DNA from: Chloroflexota bacterium
GTDB lineage: Bacteria; Chloroflexota; Anaerolineae; Anaerolineales; UBA11579
Assembly (NCBI GenBank): GCA_039714215.1
Contig: JBDLJU010000002.1
Coordinates: 1-50,242, forward strand
Direction: 5' to 3'
Length of the DNA: 50,242 nt
Part shown: positions 18,743 through 37,573 of the stretch, one piece after another
Numbering within the stretch: the stretch's first letter is position 1
How the letters are laid out: the number at the start of each line of letters is the position of its first letter
Program-made: the position numbers and the translations under genes
The notes under the pieces: model-generated
What the model was told of the DNA's origin: nothing
Databases searched by the model: none
The model's input: the letters and a program-made list of their open reading frames with translations, nothing else

Positions 18743-18761
18743 TCAATCAACTATTATTAAA

Positions 18762-18791: not shown

Positions 18792-18816
18792 CTACTCAGA
18801 ATAGAAGGAGAACTCT

Positions 18817-20583: not shown

Positions 20584-20608
20584 ATCTACCACCGTCTAAG
20601 ATAAAAAT

Positions 20609-20645
20609 AAACGCCACCAGCCTGATCATTCCGCTGGTGGCGTTT
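20609..20645. terminator. bidirectional rho-independent terminator between convergent genes
   Basis: aaacgccaccagc-(11 nt)-gctggtggcgttt, a 13-bp stem with A/T runs on both sides. Confidence 0.75.
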
Positions 20646-20663
20646 CTATTTTGAAATATTTGT

Positions 20664-21332
20664 TTAGCTTTTAATACGAACCGGAGCCCAACGCCAAATC
20701 CCCAATCCCAACACAAAAGTGAATACCCCAACGAAGGTGAAGGCATCCTGCCAAAAGCGGATCGGGAATAAGCGGATCAAGGTATCCGAATATAAGAACA
20801 GCCAGCTGTCCCCTTCAAAAAAGAGATGGTGGAAGCTGGTGAAAACCTGATTGAAATTCAAGAAAACCAGGAATACCAGCGTGCCCAGCAGCACCACAGT
20901 AAATACCCCCCCCACCGAGAGCATTTTTCGGAAATCATTCCACCATCCCCCGAACCAGGCCCAGGCGGCTAAACCCGCAAACACTCCCAGGCTCCAATAC
21001 CAGCCCTTCAGCACGGATTGGGTCAGAACCTTCACGTCGACCATATGGCGAAGCTCACGATCGTTGTATGCGGGGGTGCCGTCGGCAAACGAAACCTCCT
21101 CCAGGAAAGTAATATCCTCAGCATTGAGCAGATACGCCAATGCAAACGAAGCCATCCCCAGGCGTTCTTCCTGGCTCATGCCATAATTATCTTCCGGGAA
21201 ATACGGCATGCCGTACTCTACCGTGACAAAAGTGTCGGTGAGCAGCATCCGCACCCCGGTGAGCAGCAGAATAAAGAGCAGCAGTATCGCCACCACTACC
21301 TGGAGAATATTTTTTAGAATTTTGTTGTCCAT
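20664..21332 (-). CDS. TIGR01906/DUF1461-family integral membrane protein (family of the lipoprotein intramolecular transacylase Lit)
   Basis: 222 aa. Layout is one TM helix, a ~90-aa loop containing ELRHMVDVKVL, then three TM helices with FHHLFFEGDSWLF. Its start overlaps the upstream gene's stop by 1 nt at 21332. Confidence 0.55.
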   Translation of the reverse strand: MDNKILKNILQVVVAILLLFILLLTGVRMLLTDTFVTVEYGMPYFPEDNYGMSQEERLGMASFALAYLLNAEDITFLEEVSFADGTPAYNDRELRHMVDVKVLTQSVLKGWYWSLGVFAGLAAWAWFGGWWNDFRKMLSVGGVFTVVLLGTLVFLVFLNFNQVFTSFHHLFFEGDSWLFLYSDTLIRLFPIRFWQDAFTFVGVFTFVLGLGIWRWAPVRIKS

Positions 21333-23029: not shown

Positions 23030-23584
23030 ATGAAAAATCTAAACTACAAACCTTACCCGGTCTGCTACACGCCAATGGATAGTTCCCTTCTGGGGAGGAT
23101 TTGGATCGCGGCGCGTGAAAGTGGTGTGGTATTTCTAGACTTCAGTGAATCCGAAGCCGGCTTTATTGCCATCCTCAGTGAGTATCTGGAGAATTTCAAA
23201 GGTGAACCACAGCTCCGCCTCGACCCGACCAGCCTTTCGCCGTACCTGGAAACCCTGAACGCGTATTTTGATCACAAAACCCCGATTCCAGGTGATTTTC
23301 CTTTAGAAACTGCCTGCCTGACCGATTTCCAATGCGATGTGCTCAAACTCGTCCAGGCAATCCCTTTTGGCACGGTGGCTACATACGGTGATCTCGCCGA
23401 TAAGCTTTCCAATCCCAATGCCTCCCGAGCAGTCGGGCAGGTGCTCCGCCGCAACCCGCTGCCGATCATTATCCCCTGCCATCGGATCGTGAAAGCAGGC
23501 GGAAATATTGGGGGATATGGGGGCATTTTAGGGAGTGAGCGAAAAGTCGCCCTCCTCAAGCATGAAGGCGTGATTTTAGCCTAA
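23030..23584 (+). CDS. ogt: methylated-DNA--protein-cysteine methyltransferase
   Basis: 184 aa with the IPCHRIV active site and ATYGDLA. Confidence 0.9.
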   Translation: MKNLNYKPYPVCYTPMDSSLLGRIWIAARESGVVFLDFSESEAGFIAILSEYLENFKGEPQLRLDPTSLSPYLETLNAYFDHKTPIPGDFPLETACLTDFQCDVLKLVQAIPFGTVATYGDLADKLSNPNASRAVGQVLRRNPLPIIIPCHRIVKAGGNIGGYGGILGSERKVALLKHEGVILA

Positions 23585-23709
23585 AAACCAGCTTTTTCAC
23601 CATCATAATTTTGTCATGGGGTTGGTACTATTGTAAGATTGTTGCCCCCTTCTTTATCTAATATAATACCGTTAACAAAATTTGATTTTATTGGTATTTA
23701 AGGTGATTT

Positions 23710-23946
23710 ATGATTTCAACCGTAGTAACTGCATCGACTGCCTCAATAGCTACTAACATAACAGGGCCCCTGACCGTTATTGGTGTGGTCTTATTAATTG
23801 CTGTTCTGATTCAAAAAGAGTTAATTGGCTCAAGTGAGTCCGCAATCAGCAAGCGCATCAATCAAGTATTGAATATCGCTGTGCCCCCACTGGTCTTATC
23901 ATTTATTGGCTTGGTTGTTGTCAAAGTGATGACCTTCTTTAACTAA
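23710..23946 (+). CDS. small two-TM membrane protein, unknown function
   Basis: 78 aa. AAGGTGA lies upstream and a terminator downstream. AT-rich like the adjacent island. Coding status is not independently supported. Confidence 0.45.
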   Translation: MISTVVTASTASIATNITGPLTVIGVVLLIAVLIQKELIGSSESAISKRINQVLNIAVPPLVLSFIGLVVVKVMTFFN

Positions 23947-23967
23947 GTATACTACCCAGAAATATTG

Positions 23968-23997
23968 AGAGCTCCGGGCTCCCCGAGCTCTTTTTTT
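23968..23997. terminator. rho-independent terminator between convergent genes
   Basis: agagctccggg-ctc-cccgagctct followed by T7. Confidence 0.65.
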
Positions 23998-24035
23998 AAT
24001 CGAACGTATTTCTAATATAAAAACAGCAAGCTGCT

Positions 24036-24941
24036 CTATATTAATGGACTAATCCAATTGAGAATATAATCAATAAGCTGATTAAAACTCATATCTCCTA
24101 TAAGGTGAGGGAACACCAGGAGCAAACCGATATTGGTGAGCCCATGTGCGATTGAAACTCCCAGGAGGGAACCCGAGGAATTTGTTACCAACCCAAATAA
24201 GATCGCTACCCCGAAAACAAACAGCACATCAGCGATGGAGCCATAACCAACATGAAGTACCGCAAACAAAATTGCGCTGAAAGTAATCCCATACCGCCCG
24301 TAAACTGTGATCGCCGCCTGCTGGATCAAACCTCGAAAGAGGACCTCCTCCAATACCCCGGTGAAAATTATCAGCACGAACGCAGGAACCAGCATCGCCT
24401 CAATCGTGAATTCTGGGACAACAGGTGCAGGTTTCAGAATATAATACTCCCACAACCCCAGTGGAACTCCGACAACACCGAACAACAATTGAAAAGGGAG
24501 TTTCCCTAAATTGATCCCCAGTCGTTTGGCAGAGATCCTGGAAAACCGGTTAGCAAAAAACATGCCAATATAAACCAACACGCCAACCCAGAAATACGAT
24601 AACAGTGGATCTGGTTTCTTATCTTGAGCAAGTTTTAAGCTGGCGAGGGCAACCGGTAAAGATAAACTAATCACCCGCATCAGCGGGGCGACAGAAAGGG
24701 TGAGATACAATCTTCGAAAACGGATGGAATTGTCCAACGCACCGTGGATCATCAAAGCGACCAATACAATACTGTGCAGGATCAGCCCAAGGGACGGAGC
24801 CCGCAAATTGGTTAACACCTCCGCAACGATCAGCAATTGTAAGTAAAATAAAGGGGTGAAGTTGGCACCCTCAGGGAGTTTAAAATATTCGCCAAAAATG
24901 GCGAACCGACCTTGATTCGATCCTGAATCGTCTATCATCAT
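24036..24941 (-). CDS. CPBP-family intramembrane glutamic endopeptidase (CAAX protease/Abi type)
   Basis: 301 aa with EEVLFRGLIQ, FAVLHV and AHGLTN motifs in successive TM helices. Its start overlaps the upstream stop (TGATG at 24941). Confidence 0.8.
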   Translation of the reverse strand: MMIDDSGSNQGRFAIFGEYFKLPEGANFTPLFYLQLLIVAEVLTNLRAPSLGLILHSIVLVALMIHGALDNSIRFRRLYLTLSVAPLMRVISLSLPVALASLKLAQDKKPDPLLSYFWVGVLVYIGMFFANRFSRISAKRLGINLGKLPFQLLFGVVGVPLGLWEYYILKPAPVVPEFTIEAMLVPAFVLIIFTGVLEEVLFRGLIQQAAITVYGRYGITFSAILFAVLHVGYGSIADVLFVFGVAILFGLVTNSSGSLLGVSIAHGLTNIGLLLVFPHLIGDMSFNQLIDYILNWISPLI

Positions 24942-25762
24942 CAGTTAAGATCCTCTTCCCCCGATTCAATAACAGTTACCCAGGATGTAAGCTGACGGTA
25001 GGGAAAGTCACAACCTTCACATGAGAGGTAAATCTTGACTTTCAGGTTTTCCCCTATAGAATCCAACGTGATCATCAATTTGTCCTCCCACTGGGCGCCA
25101 TCTGGGACTAGAACCGATTCAATATGACCGACCACTCCGGCCTCAGTCAAGGCAAACACACTGTAATTCATTCCTTCACCCTCATGATTTTCTATGCCCA
25201 CATTGATTTCAAAAGGGGAATTGACCTCAACCTCGGAGACATAATCTGCAGCCCTGCCCTCCATTCCGAGGATATAAAACTCGGTGAACTCAGCAGTAGT
25301 TTCCTCTGTCTTTCCCCAAAACCAGGAGAAGGATATAAAGATCAGGAAGAGTGCAATCAAAAACGAAACCACCAGGACTGTTTCAGATTTTCCTCGCTTC
25401 AACAAATTTGGAATATTGGAAGTTTTAATATCTTGTTTATGAAACAATCTGATACCCATTGAAATCAGGCCAAGGATATTTAGCAGATACAGCACAAATT
25501 GGAGCGATTGTCTTGAAATGCCGAAGAAAGAGAGCAGCAATAGGGTCAAACCTGAGATCACTACACTCAAACCGAAGCTGGTCGGATACTTCAGCTGTTC
25601 AGTAAAAGGAAATTTTTCTGCGAACATCAAATTTAATAAGAAATACCCTGGGGCAAAAAAGAGAGAAATGAAAGCTGCACTAACATTTAACGCTACTCCC
25701 AGATCTAAAAACCAGTTCAGATTGATCAGGATTAATAGGAATAAATCAAAAACAATCCACAT
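24941..25762 (-). CDS. DUF1616-like membrane protein (four N-terminal TM helices plus beta-rich C-terminal domain)
   Basis: 273 aa. FYILGMEGRAADYVSEVEVNSPFEINVGIENHEGEGMNYSVFAL resembles the DUF1616 core as I recall it from archaeal proteins. Confidence 0.5.
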   Translation of the reverse strand: MWIVFDLFLLILINLNWFLDLGVALNVSAAFISLFFAPGYFLLNLMFAEKFPFTEQLKYPTSFGLSVVISGLTLLLLSFFGISRQSLQFVLYLLNILGLISMGIRLFHKQDIKTSNIPNLLKRGKSETVLVVSFLIALFLIFISFSWFWGKTEETTAEFTEFYILGMEGRAADYVSEVEVNSPFEINVGIENHEGEGMNYSVFALTEAGVVGHIESVLVPDGAQWEDKLMITLDSIGENLKVKIYLSCEGCDFPYRQLTSWVTVIESGEEDLN

Positions 25763-25791
25763 ACTACCCGGCTCCTACATTTACATTCATC

Positions 25792-27621
25792 TCAATCATT
25801 GTCTCTCCATGCCCATAATGTAAAATCTCCCGATTGGTAAACTCGGTTCCAGCTGGGATCATTATCTAGTAACTCAAAATCCTCCGGTGTAAACAAGCCG
25901 CCAGTGGTCCACAATTCAGAATAGTATGCAGCTCCATACCCAGTCAGGAACAGGTATTCAGGATCTTCAAAGCCCTCACCATTTGCCTCGCTATATCCAA
26001 AATGCGGGGGAGGAACTTTCACTCTCCAGCTTTCGTTCCCCTGGAGGAGAGCCGCAATTTCACCAATTGGCATCAAACCTCGAAAAATCCGTTCCCGTGC
26101 TGAAATTGAGTAAATGTTCCCTGGCTCGTCACTCGCATATTCTAGAAAATACTCGGCACCTGCAGCCCGCGCATATGTGTACTGATTGTTGGGCTGACCA
26201 ATTATCGAAGAGAAAGATACATTAAAAACCCCAATGATTCCAACTGCAATCGTTGCGGTGGAAAAAATTACGAAGATTAATGTCCGAATATTTTTTTTGA
26301 TGCTGTTCTTTTCATCCATGATCTCAAAGATAAGCGGCCCAATAATCAGGGGAGCCAAAAATACCGCAAAATTTAAGTATCTAATTGGATTTGAAGTTAT
26401 GATATCCCGGAATAAGGAAGAAACCGCTAGACTCAAAAAGAATATCATAAAAACTGGAAACACAACCAGATCACTTCTCAGCTGGTTCCACTTCCAATTC
26501 CTTCCAATTAAATAAACTGCAACACATATCAAAGCAATCAATACAATCCCCCCCCCAGACCCATATGTAAAAACTATCAGAGAAAGAATCTTTGAAATTT
26601 CTAAGCTCGCTCTTTCACTGGCGGAGACAAAAGATTCAAGCGAATTAAATCCTAGAATCCCATCACGGATCACGGACACAAGATGGATGATTGTTTTACC
26701 AAATGCCCTGAAAGTTGAAAACCACAAAAACCATGATGCCAATAAAGTCAGAAAACCAGGATAGATCGGTTGTAAGACCCTATTAATTTTACTGAAAAAT
26801 GATTTCTGTTCTCTTTGTCCAGATTTGATTAGGGGAATCAGGTAAATGAGCAAGAAAACCAGTGGACTAACTACAGCCAGAGGATGAAGGTAAGGCAAAA
26901 ACAGCAGGACCAGGATAAATATGATCACCTCTTTCCAGGTCCGATCAGTCTGCCTGGTTTTCAGGAACCAGGCAAGAAAATAAAGCAGCATATAGATCGA
27001 ATACTGCACAGGGAAATACATAGACTGGTAGTTGGAATAGATCAACAAACTTGACAAAGCTAAAAGAATTCCACGCACACCCGGTCGAGAATCATAGACC
27101 CAGGCTAAAAAGAAAACATTCATCACCCCGATAAGATAGAAGAATATCGTAGTGAAATGCATAGAGTTGGGAACACTTTGCCCAGAGATTATAGAAAAAA
27201 CCGCGGTAATCAAATGCGAGAATGGATAAAAGTCTTCCTTAAATGAGTGTCCCGTTTGCCTGATTGTCAGGATCATGCTGTGGTGATTTGGCGAATCCCA
27301 CTGGCCGTTAAACATATAATCCCGGAAATACGGCAGCGAAATTATGAACAAATTTACCATCACGATTAATAATAATCCCAACCACCATCGGTAGCTGTTT
27401 GGACGCTGGAAAACCACCAACAAAATCTGGACAAGTCCTAAAACTAACACACTGATGATCCCTGCCCAAAATAATGGAGGGTAGGCTGAATATAAACTGC
27501 TCTCGTAAGAACCATCACCAATTGATTTGCTCGCCAGGACGATGACCCCGGCGAAAATCACCATTCCGAGGATAGCTAGAAAATCAACTTTGCTGGTTTT
27601 TGGTTGGTTTTCGCTCTGCAA
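25792..27621 (-). CDS. large polytopic membrane protein with C-terminal soluble tail; candidate GT-C-type glycosyltransferase or glycan polymerase
   Basis: 609 aa. TTG start 10 nt after AGGAG. About 13-14 hydrophobic segments by eye, then a ~140-aa tail ending NRVYQSGDFTLWAWRDND. No STT3 WWDxG motif seen. Confidence 0.45.
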   Translation of the reverse strand: MQSENQPKTSKVDFLAILGMVIFAGVIVLASKSIGDGSYESSLYSAYPPLFWAGIISVLVLGLVQILLVVFQRPNSYRWWLGLLLIVMVNLFIISLPYFRDYMFNGQWDSPNHHSMILTIRQTGHSFKEDFYPFSHLITAVFSIISGQSVPNSMHFTTIFFYLIGVMNVFFLAWVYDSRPGVRGILLALSSLLIYSNYQSMYFPVQYSIYMLLYFLAWFLKTRQTDRTWKEVIIFILVLLFLPYLHPLAVVSPLVFLLIYLIPLIKSGQREQKSFFSKINRVLQPIYPGFLTLLASWFLWFSTFRAFGKTIIHLVSVIRDGILGFNSLESFVSASERASLEISKILSLIVFTYGSGGGIVLIALICVAVYLIGRNWKWNQLRSDLVVFPVFMIFFLSLAVSSLFRDIITSNPIRYLNFAVFLAPLIIGPLIFEIMDEKNSIKKNIRTLIFVIFSTATIAVGIIGVFNVSFSSIIGQPNNQYTYARAAGAEYFLEYASDEPGNIYSISARERIFRGLMPIGEIAALLQGNESWRVKVPPPHFGYSEANGEGFEDPEYLFLTGYGAAYYSELWTTGGLFTPEDFELLDNDPSWNRVYQSGDFTLWAWRDND

Positions 27622-27775
27622 AATAATTGAACTCCTGATTTAAGTCTTCCTCTTGACAATTTAAATTTATTGTTACCTGAGCGGCTCACGCGAGCGGACC
27701 AGTCAAGCTGGAACAAACATTTATCTAACAATCATATCAAATCAAACAGAAAAGTATTCCTCTCTTTTGCTTTAG

Positions 27776-28975
27776 CTAGTATGTCCCAAGTTCATCAATA
27801 ATTTGTTTATACTTGGTCACGGATGTCTCGAGGCTGTATTTCTCAACAAGAATTGCCCGAGCATTCTGAGAAATTTTTTCCAGGTCAACGCCTTCTTCAG
27901 TTGCCGATTCAAGCCCCTCAGCAATTTCCTCAGGAGTGATTCCTTTGAAAAGAAACCCAGTTTCACCTTCAATGATCATGTCCGTGATTCCACCAACATC
28001 TGTCGAAATCACCGGTGTCCCACAGCTGAAGGCTTCCATGATTACATTTGGCACACCTTCGTTTTTCGAGGGCAGGGCCATCAATTTCATCTTGTTTAAA
28101 TAATCCTGGACTTCTTCATATTTCACCCAATCGAGCCTGGTGATCCTGCTGCTCCACCTGCTTTCCGAAATGATTTTATCAACCTGCTCAGCAAGCTCTC
28201 CAACCCCAATCAAAAGGAAGTGATAATCAGGGTGCTTTTCGAGAAAAATAATAATTCCTTGCACCAATTCGAGGACACTTTTATCATTTGTCATTCGGCC
28301 TAAGAAGCCAACAGTGTTGTCTCGCTGCGATATCGGCACGATTTGCTGAAATAACCCCGCATTCCCAAAAAACTGAGCCCATTGCCGAATTTTTTTCTTC
28401 CAGATCGATAAAGGGTCATTCTTAAGATATTTCATACTTCCTACAGTGATCAGATCAGCAAAGAAGTAGTTCCATTGGGTTAGCAGGATGATAACAAATT
28501 TACCAAATCCTCCGTAAATATTCCTGGCAGGTTCAACATCTGATCCAGCCACATGATAAATGTACTTTTTCCCCAACAGTTTTGCTACCAGGATCGGCAG
28601 CTGGTAATAACTGCCGAAATAATTGGTCACAATCCCAATTTCACGACGAAGCCTGATAATTACATACGCCATTTTCACCTGGATAGCAACTAGCTTGGCA
28701 AACCAGGCTATCGCGGAAAATATTAAGGGACGGATGTCACGCAAATGATGAATCCGAATCCCAATATCGATAGGGGTGGTATTTGGATGCAGCGAGATGT
28801 TTTCTGGAATTTTACCGCTAATAAAAAAAGAGGAATATCCTGATTCTCCAATCACGTAATTTAATTTTGGAGGTACAGAATAAATATTGTCCGTCGCATA
28901 TGGAAAGACTAAAACGGCAATCTTCTTTCCTTTTAAATCACATCTACTCATAATTTTCCAATTCTTATTATCCAA
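27776..28975 (-). CDS. GT4-family (GT-B fold) glycosyltransferase
   Basis: 399 aa. EGVPNVIMEAFSCGTPVISTDVGGITDMIIEGETGFL (EX7E region). TTG start 7 nt after GAGGA. Confidence 0.8.
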   Translation of the reverse strand: MDNKNWKIMSRCDLKGKKIAVLVFPYATDNIYSVPPKLNYVIGESGYSSFFISGKIPENISLHPNTTPIDIGIRIHHLRDIRPLIFSAIAWFAKLVAIQVKMAYVIIRLRREIGIVTNYFGSYYQLPILVAKLLGKKYIYHVAGSDVEPARNIYGGFGKFVIILLTQWNYFFADLITVGSMKYLKNDPLSIWKKKIRQWAQFFGNAGLFQQIVPISQRDNTVGFLGRMTNDKSVLELVQGIIIFLEKHPDYHFLLIGVGELAEQVDKIISESRWSSRITRLDWVKYEEVQDYLNKMKLMALPSKNEGVPNVIMEAFSCGTPVISTDVGGITDMIIEGETGFLFKGITPEEIAEGLESATEEGVDLEKISQNARAILVEKYSLETSVTKYKQIIDELGTY

Positions 28976-28994
28976 AGCGGATTCCTCGTAAAAA

Positions 28995-29939
28995 TTACTT
29001 TTTAAGGTAGCGTAATCGAAGCTGATTTATTTGAGCTTGAAAAAATTCCAGGATCATGTTTATGAGAGCTTTCCCAAGCTCGCTGTACCTCAAGGTTGTC
29101 TTTCGGCCTTCAAATTTCAGCGGATAGCCCAAATATTCCAACATGTCTCCAGTCAAAGATTCGAACACGTGGATTTGCCGGGAAGACAACTTGTGTTCCC
29201 ACGCAGAGATTCTGCTGGAATCTATTGCCCGCCCCACAAGTTTGTGATCCTTTTGCGAGTACATGGGTAATGTTAACCCACTTGCCTGCAGCATTTTGGC
29301 TTCAAATTGAAGCCCGAGGAATTCGCATAATCTTTTAATTTCGCGCTCTGGATCTGATAGAAGATCCTCATATCGGATTTGAATGATTTCTCTCTCATTC
29401 AAAAGCTTTTCTGCCGCCAGGCCATAAGCAAGATTGTTTACCCAAAAATTTGCAGCGCGATCAATCGTTCGTGGTCCCCAGGAAACCGAGAGCAGCGAAG
29501 ACGCTACTGCCCGCCCATCACGGACCAGATGAACAAACTTCGCCTTAGGGAAAATTTCAAGAAGTTTTCTAACATGTTTAATATTTGCCGGCACATGATC
29601 GATCCAAAGGAGATTTTCAGTCTCTCCGGTTTGATCTGCATATTCACCAATGATAAAATTTATCATCTCCGAATACGGAGCTTCAGACTTTGGGAATTCT
29701 CTAAGCTGAATATTCCACAGCTGAAAGCGTGGATGTTCCTTGATTTTTTGCAGAATTTCCTGGCTCGTTAAATCTGCTCCCTTCCGTTCTTTACCCAGAG
29801 AAAGATAGCCGTCCAGTACAAACTGTGCTTCAGGTACACAAACTACTTGTTGGTGCGAGCCCAAGATCGCACCTAATAAGGTCGTTCCGCTTCTGTCGCA
29901 ACCTCCGACGAACACAGGATCAGCTGAAAATTTTGCCAT
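28995..29939 (-). CDS. sulfotransferase family protein
   Basis: 314 aa. A 5'-PSB-like loop GGCDRSGTTLLG and a 3'-PB-like VRDGRAVASS. Its start lies 20 nt inside the 3' end of the flippase gene. Confidence 0.75.
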   Translation of the reverse strand: MAKFSADPVFVGGCDRSGTTLLGAILGSHQQVVCVPEAQFVLDGYLSLGKERKGADLTSQEILQKIKEHPRFQLWNIQLREFPKSEAPYSEMINFIIGEYADQTGETENLLWIDHVPANIKHVRKLLEIFPKAKFVHLVRDGRAVASSLLSVSWGPRTIDRAANFWVNNLAYGLAAEKLLNEREIIQIRYEDLLSDPEREIKRLCEFLGLQFEAKMLQASGLTLPMYSQKDHKLVGRAIDSSRISAWEHKLSSRQIHVFESLTGDMLEYLGYPLKFEGRKTTLRYSELGKALINMILEFFQAQINQLRLRYLKK

Positions 29940-31209
29940 AAATATTCCCTAGTTTATTTTTATTATAATAGATGAAAAATAGTCCTAGAATGCATAGGTT
30001 GGCCCATACCCAGCCAAAACCAATCGATATCAAGCCCTTCGAAGCAAAAAGCAGCGGGAAAGAAATTGAAATAAGCGCCAACAATGCCGAGCTGCCCACC
30101 AGCCAAACTTTCTCTTTACGTACTTTTAGTCCTGAGAAAAACAAATTATTTACACTCGCAATTGGGGCAGCAATGATGATCACCCTCAGCAGCTCAATTG
30201 CGTCTAGGGTATATTCAAAACCAAAAAGGGACATGATAAATTCTGAAAATAGCAGTCCAAGGAAGGAAAGCACTCCGGTAATTGCCATGGCATAAACAGC
30301 TGCCCGCATCCAAATTTTCTCAAACCGTTCTGAATCGTGCGATCCTTCGGCAAAAGCCGATCCTGCCAATGCAATCCCCGGGCTGATCAGCAGAGCGCCA
30401 ATCATCCAGACAATATAAACAAAAGCAGAATCTTCTCCTCCCCACAATTCGAAAGCAAGAGGTGGAATTAACCAGGTAGGGATTTTATACAAATTGTTCG
30501 CCAAGAAATTACTGATTGAGAAAATTAAGATTTCTTTTTTATTCTCGATTGGCTGACTGTTTACTTCTCTGTACTGCGGAAAAATTTGTTTAACGAAAAC
30601 CACAAAGCTAAGTGTTATTGCAATCAGATAAGCAAAAATATTCGAGAGAATAATTCCATAAATACCCAACCCAACCAGAACAAATACCAAAACTAACCTG
30701 ACTAGATTGAATAAGAAAGTTTGCTGAAGAGTAAATTTCGATTCTCTAAAACTTAGAAATATCTGGCTGAAAAGATTAAAAATCGCCAATAGGGAAACAG
30801 CAGCCAACAAACAGATTATAAAATACAGATCATTGAAGCTGTCCAGCAGAGAAAAATTCCAAACTCTCATTACCAGGTAATACAGGACCGACAAGCCCAT
30901 ACTGACCATTATGCTAACCTTGAGTGCATAATTAATCAGCTCTTTTGGATTTTTTACATCCGATAAATATCTAACCAGGCCTGCACCCAGACCCAGACTT
31001 GAAAACCCGCTGAGGAAACCTACCACAGAGATCATTGATGAAGAAACACCGATGATTTCTGCTGAGAATAAATAAGATGCGAAGATCCAAAATGCATACC
31101 CGACAGCTCCCGCAAGCAGGTTGGCAGCAAAGATGTATACCGCATTCGAGATGAAATGACTGGAAAGAAAGGATTGATAAAATTCCTTGATTTTCTGCTG
31201 AATGCTCAT
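29920..31209 (-). CDS. oligosaccharide/polysaccharide flippase (Wzx-like, MOP superfamily)
   Basis: 429 aa with about 12 TM helices. The N-terminus NAVYIFAANLLAGAVGYAFWIFASYLFSAEIIGV is typical of polysaccharide biosynthesis proteins. Confidence 0.65.
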   Translation of the reverse strand: MSIQQKIKEFYQSFLSSHFISNAVYIFAANLLAGAVGYAFWIFASYLFSAEIIGVSSSMISVVGFLSGFSSLGLGAGLVRYLSDVKNPKELINYALKVSIMVSMGLSVLYYLVMRVWNFSLLDSFNDLYFIICLLAAVSLLAIFNLFSQIFLSFRESKFTLQQTFLFNLVRLVLVFVLVGLGIYGIILSNIFAYLIAITLSFVVFVKQIFPQYREVNSQPIENKKEILIFSISNFLANNLYKIPTWLIPPLAFELWGGEDSAFVYIVWMIGALLISPGIALAGSAFAEGSHDSERFEKIWMRAAVYAMAITGVLSFLGLLFSEFIMSLFGFEYTLDAIELLRVIIIAAPIASVNNLFFSGLKVRKEKVWLVGSSALLALISISFPLLFASKGLISIGFGWVWANLCILGLFFIYYNKNKLGNIYGKIFS

Positions 31210-31257
31210 CTGATTACTTCGCCTTTTACGGTCTGCTTCACTTTAGCCGAAGATCTC

Positions 31258-32406
31258 TCATTTACTTCCGCTTTTTGGTAATAATTCTTGATATAGATTC
31301 AGCAGCTTTTTTGCCGATTTTTTCCAGGTAAAATTATTTGCGATTTGCTTTCTCCCCTTTACGCCCATTTTTTTACGAAGCTGGGGATTTTCAACCAGCT
31401 CCCTGATTTTTCCAGCCAATTCTGGGACATCATCGTAAGGCACCAAGAATCCGCTCACATTATCCTGGATCACCATTCTCACTCCGGGGTTGTTTGTCGC
31501 AATCGCCGGTAGACCACATGCCATCCCTTCGGCAACTGCCAGACCAAATGATTCGGCGATAGAGGGAATCACAACCAGGTTGCCAGCATTGTAATATTTA
31601 GGTAGTTGGTGATGTAGAATTCTACCGGAAAACTTAACTTTATCAGCTATACCTAGTTCCGACGCTCTAGACTGGTACTCTGTAAGCATTTCCCCGCCAC
31701 CAATCACAAGAAGTTTCAGAGCATCAATGTCACACAGTTTAGAAATTGCCTCCAACAAAAAAAACAAACCTTTATTGACATGCGCTCTATCCAACGAACT
31801 GACAAATAAAACAACCACATCCTTATTGGAAAAACCAAATTGTTCTCTGATCTTAGTGGATGCTAATCCGGGTTTGAAGGATTCCACATCCACACCGCTG
31901 GGCACCTCCACCAGCTGATCGCGTTTGTCTTTGAAAATCTTCTCGTAAAAAATAGAGGATTCGGCATGGTCAAATGAATTGAAAGTTATCCAGTCTGCTC
32001 GTTTGAACAGCAGAGGAGTAAAAATTTTCTGGTAAATCAAAAATAAAACGCCCTTCACACCTCTGCCGATCAAGTCATTATGATAGGTCACCACCAGAGG
32101 AACCTGATTTCTCACCAGATTGAGAAGAATTAATTCCGAACCAAAAATATACGGGTTATGCAAATGGACCAGGTCAAACCCCGAGAGTTTTAACAGGTCA
32201 GGGGTTAAAAAGGCGTTCTGGATGGACAGAAAGGAGTGAAAATAACAGTAAATACTCTGATCGTAGTCCTTTTGTGGGACACCTTTATCGGGAACAAAGA
32301 CCTCAACGTCCACACCAAGGTCTTGCAGTCCTTTTGCATAGTAATAGGCTACTGTCCCGGTTCCCTCGTTGAAGGGTGAATGGGCAACTACATGAGCAAC
32401 TCTCAC
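31258..32406 (-). CDS. GT4-family glycosyltransferase
   Basis: 382 aa with a GTG start (MRVAHVV). ESFGLAVAEGMACGLPAIATNNPGVRMVIQDNVSGFLV. Confidence 0.8.
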   Translation of the reverse strand: MRVAHVVAHSPFNEGTGTVAYYYAKGLQDLGVDVEVFVPDKGVPQKDYDQSIYCYFHSFLSIQNAFLTPDLLKLSGFDLVHLHNPYIFGSELILLNLVRNQVPLVVTYHNDLIGRGVKGVLFLIYQKIFTPLLFKRADWITFNSFDHAESSIFYEKIFKDKRDQLVEVPSGVDVESFKPGLASTKIREQFGFSNKDVVVLFVSSLDRAHVNKGLFFLLEAISKLCDIDALKLLVIGGGEMLTEYQSRASELGIADKVKFSGRILHHQLPKYYNAGNLVVIPSIAESFGLAVAEGMACGLPAIATNNPGVRMVIQDNVSGFLVPYDDVPELAGKIRELVENPQLRKKMGVKGRKQIANNFTWKKSAKKLLNLYQELLPKSGSK

Positions 32407-32463
32407 CTGGAAATTATTCTCCTCAAATCTAATGAAAATCCCATCAATAAATAACGATTCTCT

Positions 32464-33588
32464 CTACCCATTAATTTCTGATAAATAGCATTGTTCATAT
32501 TCATTGACCATTGTATCCCAATTAAAATCCTTCGCTTTGAGATAATCCAGATCCCCATTAAATACACGGACCACCCCTTCAGCAATCGCGGTGGCACTCC
32601 CAGCTTCAACCAATACAAAGTTGCCAAAAACCACCTCTGGAATGGATCCGGATGCTGAAGCGACCACAGGAACATCCAGGCTGCTGGCTTCAACCGTAGT
32701 AAACCCAAAACCTTCAGTGAGTGATGGGATCACGATACAATTAGATTGACTTAAAAAAGCGAACAGGTCTTTCCGGTCGGAGAACGTTGGAACAAGGGTT
32801 ACCTTATCAACTAACTTTTTTTCCCGAATTGCCAGCTTGATTTTCTCGTATTCTGCTGCAGGGCTTGAAGATAAGATCATCAGTAATTGTGATCCAGGAA
32901 TTTTTCTGCTGATTTCAGGTACAGCATCAACCAGATAATGGACCCCTTTCGTGACCCCTGGACGACCGTAATAAACATAATTGAAGTCCGCCTGTGAGAA
33001 CAGGTTGCTGAGTTCATTTTCGCTGGAGGGTTGGATTTCTTCTCCCTCCAAATCCACACCCGGATAAATTACTTGAACCTGACCTGCTTCCACTCCTGTC
33101 TGAATTAAATCGTTCTTCGTAGCATTAGAAATGCACACATGATGGTCATATGGCAAACTGACGATCATTTTTTCGATAAACTGATAAATAAATGATTTTC
33201 GTTTAGAGGCTAAAACAAATTCCCACCGCTCGCCTAATACCTCATGACAGGTGATCACAATCTTTGCCTTCCCAAAAAGAGAACCAAGATAAGCTGCTAA
33301 GGCCGAATAATTTGAACTGGTTTGAATGATCTCAAATTGAGAAACTTGTTTGATCAATCGCGGGATGCTTACCAGAGTAAATAAGAATGGATTTTCCGAA
33401 ATCGGCAATTTCACCCGCTCAACATCCACACCATGAATTCTTTCGTGTTTAGCCAATCCCGGTTTTCCTGAGGTGATAACCTTGACATAATGCCCCTTTT
33501 TAACCAACCCTTCAGCGAGTCTCTGAAATAACAATTCAGACCCACCAACATAGGGATAATAATTGGCTAAAACAAATAATATATTCAT
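32464..33588 (-). CDS. GT4-family glycosyltransferase
   Basis: 374 aa. MNILFVLANYYPYVGGSE and EGFGFTTVEASSLDVPVVASASGSIPEVV. Confidence 0.8.
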   Translation of the reverse strand: MNILFVLANYYPYVGGSELLFQRLAEGLVKKGHYVKVITSGKPGLAKHERIHGVDVERVKLPISENPFLFTLVSIPRLIKQVSQFEIIQTSSNYSALAAYLGSLFGKAKIVITCHEVLGERWEFVLASKRKSFIYQFIEKMIVSLPYDHHVCISNATKNDLIQTGVEAGQVQVIYPGVDLEGEEIQPSSENELSNLFSQADFNYVYYGRPGVTKGVHYLVDAVPEISRKIPGSQLLMILSSSPAAEYEKIKLAIREKKLVDKVTLVPTFSDRKDLFAFLSQSNCIVIPSLTEGFGFTTVEASSLDVPVVASASGSIPEVVFGNFVLVEAGSATAIAEGVVRVFNGDLDYLKAKDFNWDTMVNEYEQCYLSEING

Positions 33589-33609
33589 TTAGAAAGTTAT
33601 TTGAGATTG

Positions 33610-34575
33610 TTATAGTTTTCGGTTTTTATAAAATTCATTCAGCAAACCTCGCACGGAGTGCAGCGTGATGCCGGTTGAGATCATCACTGCCCCGATAATC
33701 GCCAGCATTACGCTGATCATTGCCGTACCAACCGCGATCTGGGTTGTCCTGCGGAAAATTTCCACCACCCGCAGGCCAGCAAAAAAGCCACCACCGAGCA
33801 GTAAGGCTCCTGGCATCCCAAAGAACAGCAGCGGACGATATTGTCCCACCAGCTGTATGATCCCGGCAAGCACATTCATGCCCTGCCGCCACACCGAGCG
33901 TTTCGGTTTGTCCAGGTATTGGATCGTTACCGGTACTTCTTTTACCCGTAAATCTAATTCCTTGGCAATAAACTGCATTTCCGATTCGACCGAAAATCCT
34001 TTTGAGCTAAAGGCGAATTCTTTCAGTGCTTTCTCAGAAAAAGCACGGTAGCCATTCTGGGAATCCGAAGATTGCGTGCCTGAAAATGATTTCGTGAATA
34101 AATTAAAAAACCAATGCCCAATGACCCGATGCTTCGGCACTTCTGATTTTTCGTCGAGGTAGCGGGAGCCAATCACAAGATCAGCACTGCCGTCGAGAAT
34201 TGGTCCAACAATCTCGGGGAGATCATCTACCTGATGCTGTCCATCCGCATCGAGCATCACGACTGCTTCAGGTGAAAACTTTTGCGCTTCCTGGAAGCCG
34301 CGGTTGAGGGCAACACCTTTTCCCTGGTTCCCCTGATTTCTGACCACCAGCGCTCCGGCTGTGCGAGCTATCTCACCAGTATTGTCCGTTGAGCCATCAT
34401 CAACAACGATGATGTTTGAGACGTATTTTTCCAAACCCAGAATTACGCTCCCTATAAATCGAGCTTCATTGTATGCAGGGATAACGACCACGATATTTTT
34501 TCCGAGCAGCAGCTCATATCGTTTCATTTCTTCGGGATCTAAAACAAATACTGATGAATCTGGTACTGCAGCCAT
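33610..34575 (-). CDS. GT2 polyprenyl-phosphate glycosyltransferase (GtrB/DPM1/ArnC-like) with two C-terminal TM helices
   Basis: 321 aa. VVVIPAYNE, VDDGSTDNT, LDADGQH. C-terminal TM pair LLFFGMPGALLLGGGFFAGL and AMISVMLAIIGAVMISTGI. AGAGG lies 5 nt upstream of the ATG. Confidence 0.8.
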   Translation of the reverse strand: MAAVPDSSVFVLDPEEMKRYELLLGKNIVVVIPAYNEARFIGSVILGLEKYVSNIIVVDDGSTDNTGEIARTAGALVVRNQGNQGKGVALNRGFQEAQKFSPEAVVMLDADGQHQVDDLPEIVGPILDGSADLVIGSRYLDEKSEVPKHRVIGHWFFNLFTKSFSGTQSSDSQNGYRAFSEKALKEFAFSSKGFSVESEMQFIAKELDLRVKEVPVTIQYLDKPKRSVWRQGMNVLAGIIQLVGQYRPLLFFGMPGALLLGGGFFAGLRVVEIFRRTTQIAVGTAMISVMLAIIGAVMISTGITLHSVRGLLNEFYKNRKL

Positions 34576-34741
34576 AACTACCTCTTTCTTTACTACGCCT
34601 CAATTTTATTATACCTGCCGCAATCAGCCATCTGCTTTCAATTTCGTGATGGTTATTACACAAAACTGTCATGGTCGGGGGAAATATCCGCCAAATGCTG
34701 ACAATTTTCCGGTTAAGAGATAGAATAACCAGCTTCACCCA

Positions 34742-34770
34742 TTGCCCCATTCCCTATGTTTGCTTATAAT
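34742..34770 (+). promoter_or_regulatory. candidate sigma-70-type promoter for alaS
   Basis: TTGCCC (34742-34747), a 17-nt spacer, then TATAAT (34765-34770). The pattern ends 71 nt upstream of the alaS ATG. Pattern match only. Confidence 0.35.
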
Positions 34771-34840
34771 TGATAGGTCAGGTATGATCTATGATCAATG
34801 CCTGTCAGCAGACAATATATTAACGAAGGATACTTTTCTT

Positions 34841-37573
34841 ATGCCCCAATCACCAAGCGGAAACGAGATTCGAAAACAATTTATTGATTTTTTTGAAGAG
34901 AAGCATGCGCATACCTTTGTGCAGTCTTCTTCTCTGGTACCCGGAAATGACGCCACCCTGCTGTTCACCAATTCTGGAATGGTGCAGTTCAAGGATGTTT
35001 TCCTCGGAACCGATAAACGCGATTATCTGCGCGCAGTCAACTCCCAGAAGTGCATGCGCGTTGCTGGAAAGCACAACGACCTGGAAGATGTTGGATTCGA
35101 TGACACCCACCACACCTTTTTTGAGATGCTGGGCAACTGGTCATTCGGCGACTACTACAAAAAAGAAGCAATTGAATGGGCCTGGGAACTGCTTACCGAG
35201 GTATGGGGGCTGAACAAAGACGATTTATACGTCACGGTATTCAAAGATGAAAAAGGCGAAATCCCCACCGATGACGAAGCCCTCGAGCATTGGAAAAATC
35301 AACCCGGTCTCTCCCAAGACCACATCCTCTATTATGGACGCAAGGACAATTTCTGGGAGATGGCAGCCACCGGACCGTGTGGGCCAAACTCAGAGATCCA
35401 CATTGACCGCGGACCCAAGTACGGCGAATTGACCTACCTTGAAAATGGTCAGCCCGACCTGGACGGACCACGCTTCCTCGAGCTGTGGAACCTGGTATTC
35501 ATGCAGTACAACCGCATTGATGAAAGCACCCTCGATCCCCTGCCTGCCACCCACGTAGATACCGGGTTGGGCTTTGAACGGATCGTTTCTGTACTTCAGG
35601 ATCAATCCTCCAACTACCGCACAGACCTGTTCTGGCCGGTAATCGAAAAAATCCAAGAGCTTGCCGGTCACAGCGATAAGCAGCGTGACAAGCAGTTCAC
35701 CCCTTACCGGGTAATCGCCGATCACGTCCGCGCCGCCACCTTTTTGATCGCCGATGGCGTCATCCCTGGCAATATGGGACGCAACTACATCACCCGCATG
35801 GTGGTGCGCCGGGCAGCGCGCTTCGCCAGCAAGCTCGGGCTTCATGATCCTTTCCTTGCTGAGGTTGCCAAAATCGTGATCAAGAACTATGGAGATGCCT
35901 TCCCTGAGCTGGCCAAAAATAAAACCATCATCCTCGACAGCCTCACCAGAGAAGAAAAACAATTTAAGCAAACCGTCGATCGCGGCGTCGCCCAGCTCGA
36001 AAATTTGATTGCCGAATCCAAAAAGAACAAAGAAACCGTGCTTGACGGTGAGAAATCCTTCCGCTTGTATGATACCCACGGACTGCCCCTGGAAATCACC
36101 CGCGACATTGTCCAGGAAGTCGGGCTCAGCGTGGATGAAGCGGGATTCAAAGCCGCCATGGAAGCCCACCGGATTGCATCAGGCGGCGGCAGCGCCATGG
36201 GCGCCCTCGGCGGTGAGGATGCAGAGGCATTTCAGAAAATATTCACTGCCCTGCAGGCAGAAAACAAACTCAAAGCTAAAGGGGTCAGCTATGACCCGTA
36301 CGATTCCCTGGAGACCAGTGGTGAAGTCCTCGCCCTCGTGCAGGACGGCAGCGTGGTGAAATCTGCCAAAAAAGGCGAACAGTTAGAAATCATTCTCCCC
36401 GCCACAAGTTTTTATGTCGCTGCAGGCGGCCAGGTGGCAGACACCGGAACAATTTCCGCGGAAGATGGCAGCTGGACATTCGAAGTCAGCGACATCCGCC
36501 AGCCAGCCGCGGGGATCATTGCCCATCGCGGCAAGGTGACGACCGGTACGCTCAAAGTCGGAAATCAGGTTCAGGCCCAGGTAGACCAGCAGCGCAGACA
36601 GGATATTATCCGCAATCACACCGCCACCCACCTGCTGCACGCTGAACTGCACCGTGTGCTCGGCGACCATGCCAGGCAGGCCGGTTCGCTGGTTGCCCCC
36701 GACCGTTTGCGCTTCGACTTCCAGCATCCGGAAGCAGTCACCCCAACTGAGTTGGTGGAGATCGAAGCCGGAGTAAACAAGCGTATTTTGGAGAACCATG
36801 AATTAAAAATTGAAAAGAAAACTCTCGATGAAGCCAAATCCGAAGGCGCAACTGCACTTTTTGGTGAAAAATACGGCGAGATCGTCCGCACCATTCAGAT
36901 TGGCGGAGAAAAGCCTTTCTCCTATGAACTCTGCGGCGGCACCCATGTGACTTCCACCGGAGAGATCGGCACCTTCCTGATCATCAGCGAAGGCAGCGTG
37001 GCATCCGGCATCCGGCGTATCGAGGCGATCACCGGGCGGGAAGCCTACCAACGCATTCAAAAACGGAACGCAGACATTGCCAGGCTCGCCGTCCTGCTGA
37101 AAACCACCCCAGACCAGGTCCTGGAGAAAACCAAAACCCTTTCTAAAGAGCTGATCGAGGCGCAAAAAGCGATTTCCGGATTAAAACACAGCCAGGCTGC
37201 CGGTTCCTTCAGCCAGCAGATCGAGAATGCCCCAGAGATCAACGGCGTGCGCGTGCTCGCCAGCATCCTCCCAGAAGCAGACCGGGATACGCTCCGTGAG
37301 CTGGCCGACCGCTTCCGCCAGAAGTACCCCACCGGTGTGACCGTACTCGCCAGTGTGATCGACGATAAACCAGCAATCATCGCGGCAGTCACCGACGACC
37401 TTGTCAAACAAGGCTGGCATGCCGGCGAGCTGGTCAAGGTAGTTTCCGAACCGGTCGGCGGCAGCGGTGGCGGACGCCCCAATCTGGCACAGGCTGGCGG
37501 CAAAGATGCCTCCAAGTTAGAGAGCGCCATCGCTTTGGTGGCTGACTGGGTCACCGAAAAAACTCAGGGATAA
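34841..37573 (+). CDS. alaS: alanine--tRNA ligase
   Basis: Track ORF trimmed to the ATG at 34841 (MPQSPSGNEIRKQFIDFFEEKHAH). FTNSGMVQFKDVFLG, FFEMLGNWSFGDYYK, HTATHLLH editing motif, and C-terminal GGGRPNLAQAGG. Confidence 0.95.
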   Translation: MPQSPSGNEIRKQFIDFFEEKHAHTFVQSSSLVPGNDATLLFTNSGMVQFKDVFLGTDKRDYLRAVNSQKCMRVAGKHNDLEDVGFDDTHHTFFEMLGNWSFGDYYKKEAIEWAWELLTEVWGLNKDDLYVTVFKDEKGEIPTDDEALEHWKNQPGLSQDHILYYGRKDNFWEMAATGPCGPNSEIHIDRGPKYGELTYLENGQPDLDGPRFLELWNLVFMQYNRIDESTLDPLPATHVDTGLGFERIVSVLQDQSSNYRTDLFWPVIEKIQELAGHSDKQRDKQFTPYRVIADHVRAATFLIADGVIPGNMGRNYITRMVVRRAARFASKLGLHDPFLAEVAKIVIKNYGDAFPELAKNKTIILDSLTREEKQFKQTVDRGVAQLENLIAESKKNKETVLDGEKSFRLYDTHGLPLEITRDIVQEVGLSVDEAGFKAAMEAHRIASGGGSAMGALGGEDAEAFQKIFTALQAENKLKAKGVSYDPYDSLETSGEVLALVQDGSVVKSAKKGEQLEIILPATSFYVAAGGQVADTGTISAEDGSWTFEVSDIRQPAAGIIAHRGKVTTGTLKVGNQVQAQVDQQRRQDIIRNHTATHLLHAELHRVLGDHARQAGSLVAPDRLRFDFQHPEAVTPTELVEIEAGVNKRILENHELKIEKKTLDEAKSEGATALFGEKYGEIVRTIQIGGEKPFSYELCGGTHVTSTGEIGTFLIISEGSVASGIRRIEAITGREAYQRIQKRNADIARLAVLLKTTPDQVLEKTKTLSKELIEAQKAISGLKHSQAAGSFSQQIENAPEINGVRVLASILPEADRDTLRELADRFRQKYPTGVTVLASVIDDKPAIIAAVTDDLVKQGWHAGELVKVVSEPVGGSGGGRPNLAQAGGKDASKLESAIALVADWVTEKTQG

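Follow-up and report, generated by a model that had tools for sequence, protein, structure and literature searches.

A low-GC, variable gene block between ogt and alaS of an Anaerolineales bacterium, with a predicted GT-C-fold glycosyltransferase and a putative role in sulfated glycan assembly

The block and its genes

Bacteria of the order Anaerolineales (phylum Chloroflexota) are abundant in anaerobic digesters and sediments, but most are uncultured, and their surface chemistry is poorly known. Here, we report an analysis of an 11-kb block of low-GC glycan genes between ogt and alaS on a 50,242-bp stretch of DNA (the window) from a Chloroflexota bacterium of the lineage UBA11579 (GenBank assembly GCA_039714215.1); the window is the entire contig JBDLJU010000002.1. 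Its AlaS protein is at most 72% identical to that of any GTDB species representative retrieved. Relatives for comparison were the 80 best AlaS matches among these representatives, all of them Anaerolineales/Anaerolineae (Chloroflexota) and mostly metagenome-assembled genomes (MAGs).

The block comprises nine co-directional minus-strand genes (24036 to 34575) and one small plus-strand gene (23710 to 23946). In order of transcription, the nine encode a family 2 glycosyltransferase (GT2), two family 4 glycosyltransferases (GT4a and GT4b), a Wzx-type flippase candidate, a sulfotransferase, a third family 4 enzyme (GT4c), a 609-aa polytopic protein, a DUF1616 protein and a CPBP protease. This head-to-tail layout and domain content had been proposed in a first-pass annotation made from the letters of the window, and the Pfam assignments agree with it; a 154-nucleotide (nt) gap 5′ of the 609-aa gene (27622 to 27775) was confirmed. 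That annotation drew the block as the nine genes, which stands, but the conserved plus-strand gene, encoding 78 aa, also lies in it.

The sharp compositional change described earlier, with the GT2 gene intermediate, is borne out by profiles of GC content, GC content at third codon positions (GC3) and tetranucleotides. The block has a GC of 0.43 and a GC3 of 0.45, vs 0.55 and 0.66 in 31 other window genes. In 1-kb windows, GC is 0.39 to 0.47 from 23.5 to 35 kb and mostly 0.48 to 0.60 in the flanks (single dip of 0.46 at 13.5 to 14.5 kb), and the tetranucleotide distance from the backbone is approximately doubled across the block (29 to 40 vs 14 to 23). Gene by gene, the GC3 values of the nine block genes (0.395 to 0.51) and of the 31 others (0.568 to 0.75) show zero overlap, a complete separation with a rank probability of 1/C(40,9), approximately 4e-9. 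Intermediate composition was found at the two ends of the block, in the GT2 gene (GC3, 0.50) and the CPBP gene (GC3, 0.51).

The first operon gene (33610 to 34575, minus strand; Glycos_transf_2, 99.8 bits vs a cut-off of 23.3) encodes the GT2, which, from its sequence features, is probably an ArnC/DPMS/AglJ-like polyprenyl-phosphate glycosyltransferase and the primer step of the pathway. It has two C-terminal transmembrane (TM) segments (residues 249 to 267 and 280 to 298) and a DxDxQ motif (DADGQ, residues 109 to 113), which is conserved in orthologues on two metagenomic contigs, L001 (JGI 3300057016) and L091 (ENA ERZ25039514). DxDxQ has been proposed as the motif by which GT2 enzymes acting on polyisoprenyl phosphate as sugar acceptor can be recognized (PMC10821137). 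Among PDB sequences, DPMS was the top match, and the alignment with ArnC was near full length (residues 26 to 308). The best NCBIfam models were AglJ (TIGR04182; 155.8 vs a cut-off of 325) and PpgS (NF058614; 125 vs 370), scores that mark the enzyme as a relative of AglJ/PpgS and not an equivalog. The cluster had been said to contain no recognizable priming gene. A WbaP/WecA-type enzyme is indeed missing, but the GT2 class is a demonstrated primer in synthesis of the lactococcal polysaccharide pellicle (PSP; PMC10821137) and in archaeal N-glycosylation (PMC11980604).

Two GT4 genes follow, GT4a (32464 to 33588, minus strand; Glyco_transf_4, 90.1 bits; Glycos_transf_1, 71.7 bits) and GT4b (31258 to 32406, minus strand; Glycos_transf_1, 140 bits); GT4c (27776 to 28975, minus strand; Glycos_transf_1, 102.9 bits) lies further downstream, in the variable part of the locus. 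The Wzx-type flippase candidate of the multidrug/oligosaccharidyl-lipid/polysaccharide (MOP) superfamily (29920 to 31209, minus strand) matches Polysacc_synt (PF01943; 30.0 vs 28.2 bits) and has ten hydrophobic segments. Its gene overlaps by 20 nt that of a soluble sulfotransferase (28995 to 29939, minus strand; Sulfotransfer_3, 133.8 vs 27 bits) of the type that uses 3′-phosphoadenosine 5′-phosphosulfate (PAPS). This enzyme has no TM segment, and its PAPS-binding motif, RSGTT, was read from the sequence at residues 14 to 23 (CDRSGTTLLG).

The last operon gene encodes a CPBP (Rce1-like) intramembrane glutamic protease (24036 to 24941, minus strand; Pfam Rce1-like, 55.4 vs 22.4 bits). Against the Mrt/myxosortase NCBIfam models, all of its matches fell below cut-off (best, MrtJ, 39.6 vs 75); it is the generic CPBP core only that is matched above threshold. 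The protease is 59% identical in L001, and CPBP genes were found near related clusters in the window, L001, L091, L092 and L094. Convergent with the operon, beyond a terminator-like hairpin (23967 to 23990), lies the plus-strand gene (23710 to 23946; GC3, 0.44), which is part of the low-GC block and encodes a protein of 78 aa whose N-terminus is rich in Ser and Thr (MISTVVTASTASIAT...) and which has two TM helices. This protein is present in L091 too and is 67% identical in L001, above the 609-aa protein (54%) and DUF1616 (43%); it had no Pfam match and no match in 80 genomes without the cluster. Its NIT sequon was considered as an N-glycosylation acceptor site and rejected, as it is not conserved in L001. 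We regard the CPBP protease and the 78-aa protein as conserved accessories and assign them no role.

Pfam scans of the nine genes and 30 other window open reading frames (ORFs) found no integrase, phosphoglycosyltransferase, Wzz/Wza or nucleotide-sugar gene; there was no tRNA in the window, and a search for island-flanking direct repeats gave short chance matches only. The absences listed by the first-pass annotation therefore hold, but their oddity was overcalled: variable, low-GC glycan cassettes that have neither primer nor sugar-nucleotide genes beside them are common. Genes for the initiating transferase and for common nucleotide sugars are often unlinked, as in those O-antigen loci of Escherichia coli that depend on a wecA gene elsewhere, and Wza-type export is not expected if the Chloroflexi envelope has a single membrane, as proposed. 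An anti-phage defence system, suggested by “GT4-conflict” Pfam matches, was rejected: PADLOC gave zero matches for all ten block proteins, and the Pfam matches overlap generic GT4 domains.

Insertion at the ogt|alaS site and variation among relatives

Both flanks carry housekeeping genes. Upstream are mutS, a malK-type ATP-binding cassette (ABC) ATPase gene and genes for phosphoglycerate mutase (PGM), Lit and a fused major facilitator superfamily/spermidine synthase (SpdSyn), followed by ogt (O6-methylguanine-DNA methyltransferase; 23030 to 23584, plus strand; Pfam DNA_binding_1, 106 bits, and Methyltransf_1N; GC3, 0.57), the backbone gene at the left boundary of the insertion. Downstream are alaS, a gene for a Baseplate_J-like protein, yceG, two ABC exporter genes and recA. 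The right boundary is the divergent intergenic region between the GT2 gene and alaS (34576 to 34841). The alaS start is most likely ATG at 34842 and not TTG at 34742 of the mechanical ORF (homologues align from approximately residue 33), and with the start placed there the spacer is approximately 266 nt. A scan for promoters and terminators found them no more often than in shuffled sequence.

The backbone order MutS-MalK-(PGM)-Lit-SpdSyn-(Ogt)-AlaS was retained in 46 of the 80 related loci, with a gap before alaS of 100 bp to 7.3 kb, and none of the nine block genes was present at the ogt|alaS site in these 46 genomes. The block is thus foreign to the local backbone, as had been suspected. In relatives, ogt lies 135 to 280 nt upstream of alaS; in the four nearest (AlaS, 69 to 72% identity), the gap before alaS is 0.2 to 1.5 kb. 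Elsewhere the site holds other genes: a single unrelated membrane protein in L004, an unrelated soluble GT2 plus a membrane protein in L068, and, in an Anaerolineae MAG (L010, 2690 to 9712), rfbA/B/C/D-like dTDP-rhamnose genes (named from ORF translations) together with genes for a 604-aa protein resembling signal peptidases and for three small secreted proteins that are paralogues. Because the L010 gap contains rhamnose and signal-peptidase-like genes, we conclude that the ogt|alaS site collects different surface-related cargo in different lineages.

The GT2 gene had been taken for a native neighbour onto which the block was grafted, a view that was rejected. Its orthologues (66 to 76% identity) occur only in the two relatives with the whole cluster, and the GT2 beside alaS in L068/L071 is unrelated (259 aa, 27% identity), being soluble, with no TM helix and no DxDxQ motif, and followed by an unrelated membrane protein. 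The GT2 gene belongs to the inserted block.

The two relatives are L001 and L091, where the cluster occupies exactly the ogt|alaS site and shows the same GC dip as in the window. AlaS is 76% identical to the window protein in L001 and 88% identical in L091; backbone proteins generally fall within this range (Ogt and Lit are lower), vs 26 to 77% for cluster proteins. GT4b is conserved across the three loci (63 to 67% in L001 and L091). GT4a is 53% identical in L001 and replaced outright in L091 by a non-orthologous GT4 (26%); GT4c shares 77% identity with its L091 counterpart; in L001 the figure is only 33%, and there GT4c, Wzx and the sulfotransferase have all been replaced outright and a polysaccharide deacetylase and a methyltransferase are added. 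In L091 (2286 to 9965 and 10864 to 11686), the gene at the GT4a position and those for GT4b, Wzx, the 609-aa homologue and CPBP are each split into at least two reading frames, which might stem from errors in long-read assembly or from genuine decay of the cluster.

Since the locus occupies one and the same site in three diverged lineages (the window, L001 and L091), its insertion preceded their split, and it has since behaved as a serotype cassette, its ends being conserved and its middle variable. Low GC and gene swaps fit long residence under diversifying selection with cassette exchange, as in O-antigen and capsule loci. The first-pass claim of horizontal acquisition is therefore right as to an inserted block but not as to a recent or one-off event, the same site being occupied in two diverged relatives with genes swapped. 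Deviant composition and absence from syntenic relatives are features of a genomic island; the mobility signatures of one (integrase, tRNA target, flanking direct repeats) were not found in the window. In Anaerolineales genome GCA_016935755.1, a related cluster (L084) lies approximately 100 kb from an intact SpdSyn-alaS junction (L078) on the same contig, so that this type of cluster is at home in Anaerolineales but its position is not fixed.

Two further observations concern the flanks. The Baseplate_J-like protein directly downstream of alaS (506 aa; 37599 to 39119, plus strand) carries a phage domain that is odd for a conserved housekeeping neighbourhood; it is kept downstream of alaS, and followed by yceG, in many Anaerolineales genomes (31 to 51% identity). 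At 6731 to 9967 (minus strand) lie genes for a 736-aa protein whose N-terminal domain is a GH25 muramidase and, after it, for a 330-aa protein carrying an Ig-like domain (N_BRCA1_IG); the two may act together in remodelling the cell wall, with no connection to the glycan locus.

The GT-C-fold protein, DUF1616 and their neighbourhoods

The 609-aa protein (25792 to 27621, minus strand; the recorded database gene starts 19 codons later) had been described as polytopic, which it is, but its fold had gone unrecognized. An AlphaFold2 model built from a 60-sequence alignment had a mean predicted local distance difference test (pLDDT) score of 92.6 and a predicted template modelling (pTM) score of 0.92. 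In a Foldseek search of the PDB, the 22 best matches (E < 0.004) were all GT-C enzymes at a probability of 1.00 (E, 4e-7 to 3e-3; TM-score, 0.36 to 0.51), among them yeast and human STT3, PglB, AftA, ArnT, AglB, AftD, DPY19 and EmbA/B; the top of the list (STT3, PglB, AftA, ArnT and AglB) had E values of 4e-7 to 1e-5 and TM-scores of 0.40 to 0.51. By this model, the protein is a GT-C-fold glycosyltransferase of an unannotated family, and it probably supplies the outer-face transfer step.

Membership of the STT3/PglB/AglB group was rejected: the protein has no WWDXG motif (neither a WWD nor a W.D.G string is present), and the STT3 model gave no match at E ≤ 0.01 in the window protein or 60 aligned family members. 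Identity as Wzy_C (PF04932) was likewise rejected, with no match in any of the nine block proteins. Residues Y39, D109, Y132, P133, H246 and D581 are invariant in the family, and H113, H136, R414 and an H-F-G-Y motif at 540 to 543 are nearly so. D109, invariant in 60 sequences, lies in a loop between membrane helices of the model; in the first loop, Y39 is followed by E40, which is E in 46 of 60 sequences.

No Pfam or NCBIfam model covers the family: an NCBIfam scan of 60 aligned members gave nothing meaningful, and a PDB sequence search with the family profile had no match even at E = 10. DUF6541 (PF20176) falls below threshold in the window protein (17.3 vs 29 bits) and matches 14 of 60 aligned members at E ≤ 0.01 (best, 2.8e-9), which makes a distant relationship likely on sequence grounds. 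A word-indexed search of 5.8 billion proteins returned four matches, the window's own protein and three relatives, and the same four proteins only when repeated with the 60-sequence alignment. When 1.84 billion cluster representatives were searched with a HMMER profile, 2,181 members were found at E ≤ 1e-3, 823 of them at E ≤ 1e-30; members were counted as 50%-identity clusters, and the figure is to be read as at least 2,181. Those listed are mostly full-length (approximately 600 aa), and the three that are named come from an Anaerolineales bacterium, an “uncultured archaeon” and a Thermoplasmata archaeon. The earlier statement that the locus matches no characterized one is upheld by these few word-indexed matches and by a plasmid collection that held no DNA similar to 24036 to 31209. 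The novelty, a modest but real one, lies in a GT-C family without annotation that archaea also possess and that in Anaerolineales goes together with DUF1616 and sulfotransferases.

The DUF1616 (PF07760) membrane protein (24941 to 25762, minus strand; 70.2 vs 31.6 bits) was modelled with AlphaFold2 as five N-terminal TM helices (pLDDT, 50 to 70) and a beta-sandwich (residues 160 to 268; pLDDT, approximately 90), for which Foldseek returned CARDB, carbohydrate-binding module (CBM) and macroglobulin domains. An Ig/CARDB-like sandwich, as modelled, is a generic fold that says little about function, and gene order is more informative. DUF1616 lies immediately downstream of the GT-C homologue in five bacterial-type loci (the window, L001, L091, L084 and the P0014 contig), and we propose that it is the partner of the GT-C enzyme, with its Ig-like domain facing outward. 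In the literature, DUF1616 was only incidentally mentioned, and nothing was found on DUF6541.

In all five bacterial-type loci with the full gene order visible, a sulfotransferase gene is found upstream of the GT-C gene, either directly or with one gene between. Polysacc_synt-type (Wzx) genes occur in 9 of 11 independent neighbourhoods of the family, a count that accepts weak Pfam matches and includes L091 only by similarity to the window's Wzx. L092/L093 have an exporter cluster of the Wzm/Wzt ABC type with no Wzx, in which genes for a GT2, a 537-aa polytopic protein and DUF1616 directly follow one another; the 537-aa protein aligns with the family profile in the D109...YP region only (hhalign probability, 62%; 76 columns). 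Because this pair sits with a Wzm/Wzt exporter, it hints that a GT-C/DUF1616-type pair acts after export, by whatever route, rather than in repeat-unit polymerization. DUF1616 and sulfotransferases were absent from the archaeal-type neighbourhoods read, whose clusters have a GC of 28 to 40%.

Several neighbourhoods hold further genes. In L084 (12636 to 14903) and the P0014 contig, DUF1616 is followed by a 673- to 755-aa Wzy_C + TPR protein, akin to O-antigen ligases/polymerases, and another GT2, both of which are absent from the window-type cluster. On a probably archaeal contig (L086/L087, approximately 8000 to 21000), a family member lies in a glycan cluster of 28 to 39% GC (flanks, 60 to 65%), an island still more sharply set off than that of the window, with genes for a pyruvyl-transferase, a FemAB-like protein and UDP-GlcNAc 2-epimerase. 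Near a Thermoplasmata-type member in L094 (928 to 1179 and 3611 to 4396) are an adenosine 5′-phosphosulfate (APS)-kinase fragment (PAPS supply) and a CPBP protease, as well as integrase and transposase fragments and a ParB-like gene, which hints that some clusters of the family sit in mobile regions.

A proposed pathway and its alternatives

We read the block as an inserted, serotype-like variable locus for a sulfated surface glycan, in which an oligosaccharide would be assembled on polyprenyl phosphate, flipped and transferred by the GT-C/DUF1616 pair to an acceptor encoded elsewhere; we give this reading an even chance of being right. The membrane-anchored GT2 would, from the features of its class, load the first sugar on polyprenyl monophosphate, and the three soluble GT4 enzymes would then elongate it with further sugars on the cytoplasmic face. 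Because the sulfotransferase has no signal peptide or TM helix, sulfation of the lipid-linked oligosaccharide would take place in the cytoplasm. The Wzx-type protein would flip the glycan, and the GT-C enzyme, whose fold was modelled, would with DUF1616 move it, presumably en bloc, from the lipid to a cell-wall polysaccharide or surface protein made elsewhere. A pathway acting on such an acceptor had already been proposed from the gene list, and it is our best reading also.

The closest likeness is to lactococcal PSP. There, the GT2 pair WpsA/B primes on undecaprenyl phosphate and cytoplasmic glycosyltransferases extend the chain, both steps being experimental, and in the proposed model a Wzx-type flippase (WpsG) exports the unit and the GT-C enzyme WpsJ attaches it to a separately made rhamnan (PMC10821137). 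The window cluster and the PSP cluster (WpsA/WpsB, WpsC-F, WpsG and WpsJ) both encode a DxDxQ polyprenyl-phosphate GT2, a GT-C transferase, a Wzx-type flippase and several glycosyltransferases of the cytoplasm, and neither holds a phosphoglycosyltransferase; in both, glycosyltransferases vary from strain to strain, and the acceptor is, or in the window would be, the product of genes outside the cluster. They differ in that the window GT2 has two TM helices of its own (GtrB/ArnC/DPMS-like) and no WpsB/GacJ partner, its glycosyltransferases are GT4 enzymes, a sulfotransferase, DUF1616 and CPBP are added, and the host is a chloroflexotan.

The haloarchaeal Agl pathway offers a second parallel. 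The sulfated tetrasaccharide N-glycan of Halobacterium salinarum is built on dolichyl phosphate and sulfated while lipid-bound (PMC11980604). A start on polyprenyl (dolichyl) monophosphate, a dedicated flippase (Agl29), lipid-bound sulfation and GT-C transfer are all features that the window would share, and AglJ is the best NCBIfam match of its GT2. However, the AglJ and PpgS scores are below half of their cut-offs, the window GT-C protein has neither WWDXG nor an STT3 match, the Halobacterium sulfotransferases belong to the sulfatase/alkaline-phosphatase superfamily and not to Sulfotransfer_3, and the window host is a bacterium. With Wzx/Wzy O-antigen and capsule loci, the block shares a low-GC cassette whose chromosomal position is fixed and flanked by housekeeping genes, conserved ends around a variable middle, glycosyltransferases and Wzx; unlike them, it has no Wzy_C, Wzz, WaaL or Wza/Wzc homologue, and GT-C plus DUF1616 stand in the post-flippase position. 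Three-component systems (GtrABC, CsbB/GtcA/YfhO and GacI/J/K/L; PMC8035078 and PMC11127046) also encode a polyprenyl-phosphate GT2 and a GT-C enzyme together, but they add one sugar, whereas the window has three GT4s, a Wzx-type flippase and a sulfotransferase between the two and no GtrA-type flippase. A polyprenyl-phosphate GT2, cytoplasmic glycosyltransferases, a Wzx-type flippase and a GT-C enzyme occur together in this one locus, which, by analogy and as part of the same evenly balanced reading, may work as an extended multi-component transmembrane glycosylation system.

Several points weigh against this reading. The polyprenyl monophosphate linkage is proposed by analogy, and most other clusters of the GT-C family have no DxDxQ or TM-anchored GT2; because the GT2 class is missing from many of them, priming by an unlinked phosphoglycosyltransferase on polyprenyl diphosphate would be equally possible in general. 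Foldseek scores fail to separate en-bloc transferases (STT3/PglB) from single-sugar ones (ArnT/AftA). The Wzx assignment has a Pfam score barely over threshold, the 537-aa protein of L092/L093 is linked to the family weakly, and the nearest PDB sequences of the sulfotransferase, TPST1/2 and CurM, act on tyrosine and a polyketide intermediate, not on sugars. The Wzy_C-TPR protein of L084 and the P0014 contig could be the ligase, and the GT-C enzyme would then have a different job.

Such doubts lead to the alternatives. In a conventional Wzx/Wzy-type pathway, which we consider unlikely, an unlinked WecA/WbaP-type enzyme would prime on polyprenyl diphosphate, the GT4s and sulfotransferase would finish the unit, and Wzx would flip it; the GT-C protein would be the polymerase in place of Wzy and DUF1616 the co-polymerase or chain-length factor, with the GT2 feeding a side branch only. 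Wzx-type genes do accompany the family in most neighbourhoods, the window, L001, L091 and the archaeal-type loci contain no Wzy_C protein, the Wzy_C-TPR protein elsewhere could be a ligase that leaves polymerization to the GT-C enzyme, and the tight GT-C-DUF1616 pair recalls polymerase/regulator pairs such as lactococcal WpsH/WpsI (PMC10821137). Yet a distant polytopic protein with DUF1616 also stands in a Wzm/Wzt cluster, where an outer-face polymerase is unneeded, and DUF1616, with five TM helices, a small Ig-like domain and no long coiled coil, is unlike a Wzz-type co-polymerase. The structural matches, moreover, are to the STT3/PglB/ArnT/AftA group, the “GT-C_A” class, and no Wzy- or WaaL-type structure was among the 50 Foldseek matches listed. 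Less likely still, in our view, are two separate modules: the GT2 and GT-C enzyme (with DUF1616) would form a single-sugar system of the Gtr/CsbB-YfhO/GacI-GacL type, fed by polyprenyl-P-monosaccharide, and the GT4s, Wzx and sulfotransferase would build a different lipid-linked glycan, primed and ligated elsewhere. Polyprenyl-phosphate GT2 + GT-C pairs are the rule in such systems (PMC8035078; PMC10821137; PMC11127046), single-sugar ArnT and AftA score nearly as well as oligosaccharyltransferases, and GT2, polytopic protein and DUF1616 are back to back in L092/L093. Most clusters of the family, however, have no GT2 with a DxDxQ motif or a TM anchor, and the GT2 of L092/L093 has neither; in the window operon, the GT2 gene stands at one end and the GT-C gene at the opposite end, six genes away, beside the sulfotransferase/GT4 part, and the Pfam scan of the nine genes found no GtrA-type small flippase.

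A sub-case of the proposed pathway is protein glycosylation, in which GT-C/DUF1616 would be a non-STT3 oligosaccharyltransferase acting on a sheath- or S-layer-type protein whose sorting signal CPBP would process. In its favour, STT3 and PglB head the structural matches, several related clusters have a CPBP gene nearby, the best NCBIfam matches of CPBP are Mrt-type sorting proteases, and the layout mirrors haloarchaeal Agl in its AglJ-like first enzyme, flippase and lipid-bound sulfation (PMC11980604). Against this, the GT-C protein has no WWDXG motif and no Pfam STT3 match, the Mrt matches are far under cut-offs, in the window no candidate acceptor with a sorting signal at its C-terminus came to light, and the sequon of the 78-aa protein is not conserved in L001. 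A literature search found nothing joining Chloroflexi, S-layer, glycosylation and oligosaccharyltransferase. We hold this to be improbable, and the bolder form of it, a new non-STT3 family of en-bloc oligosaccharyltransferases that spans Anaerolineales and Archaea and puts a sulfated, polyprenyl-monophosphate-built glycan on a surface or sheath protein, is a long shot; if true, it would mean archaeal-style protein glycosylation in filamentous Chloroflexota without AglB or PglB. As to origin, a single recent import from an AT-rich donor, possibly an archaeon, in place of a long-resident diversifying locus, seems to us very improbable. In its favour, composition changes sharply at the block, archaea share the GT-C family as well as DUF1616 (archaeal in the Pfam description), and the archaeal-type clusters are themselves GC-poor. 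But the shared site in three lineages puts the insertion before their split, there is no integrase, tRNA or repeat, and archaeal-type L086 is itself GC-dipped (0.28 to 0.39 vs flanks of 0.60 to 0.65); the dip is mild in the Anaerolineales locus L084, and the other archaeal-type loci show no high-GC flank in view.

Low-GC, variable glycan cassettes are an ordinary class of locus. The favoured reading predicts for this anaerolinealean a sulfated surface glycan that varies between near relatives and could be a serotype-like determinant for recognition by phages or partners. The locus also gives a function-like label, a GT-C-fold transferase acting after Wzx, to a family of at least 2,181 50%-identity clusters, and DUF1616 gains a testable role as the partner of that enzyme. 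If the glycan is built on polyprenyl monophosphate, a route so far shown mainly in lactococci and archaea would extend beyond Firmicutes.

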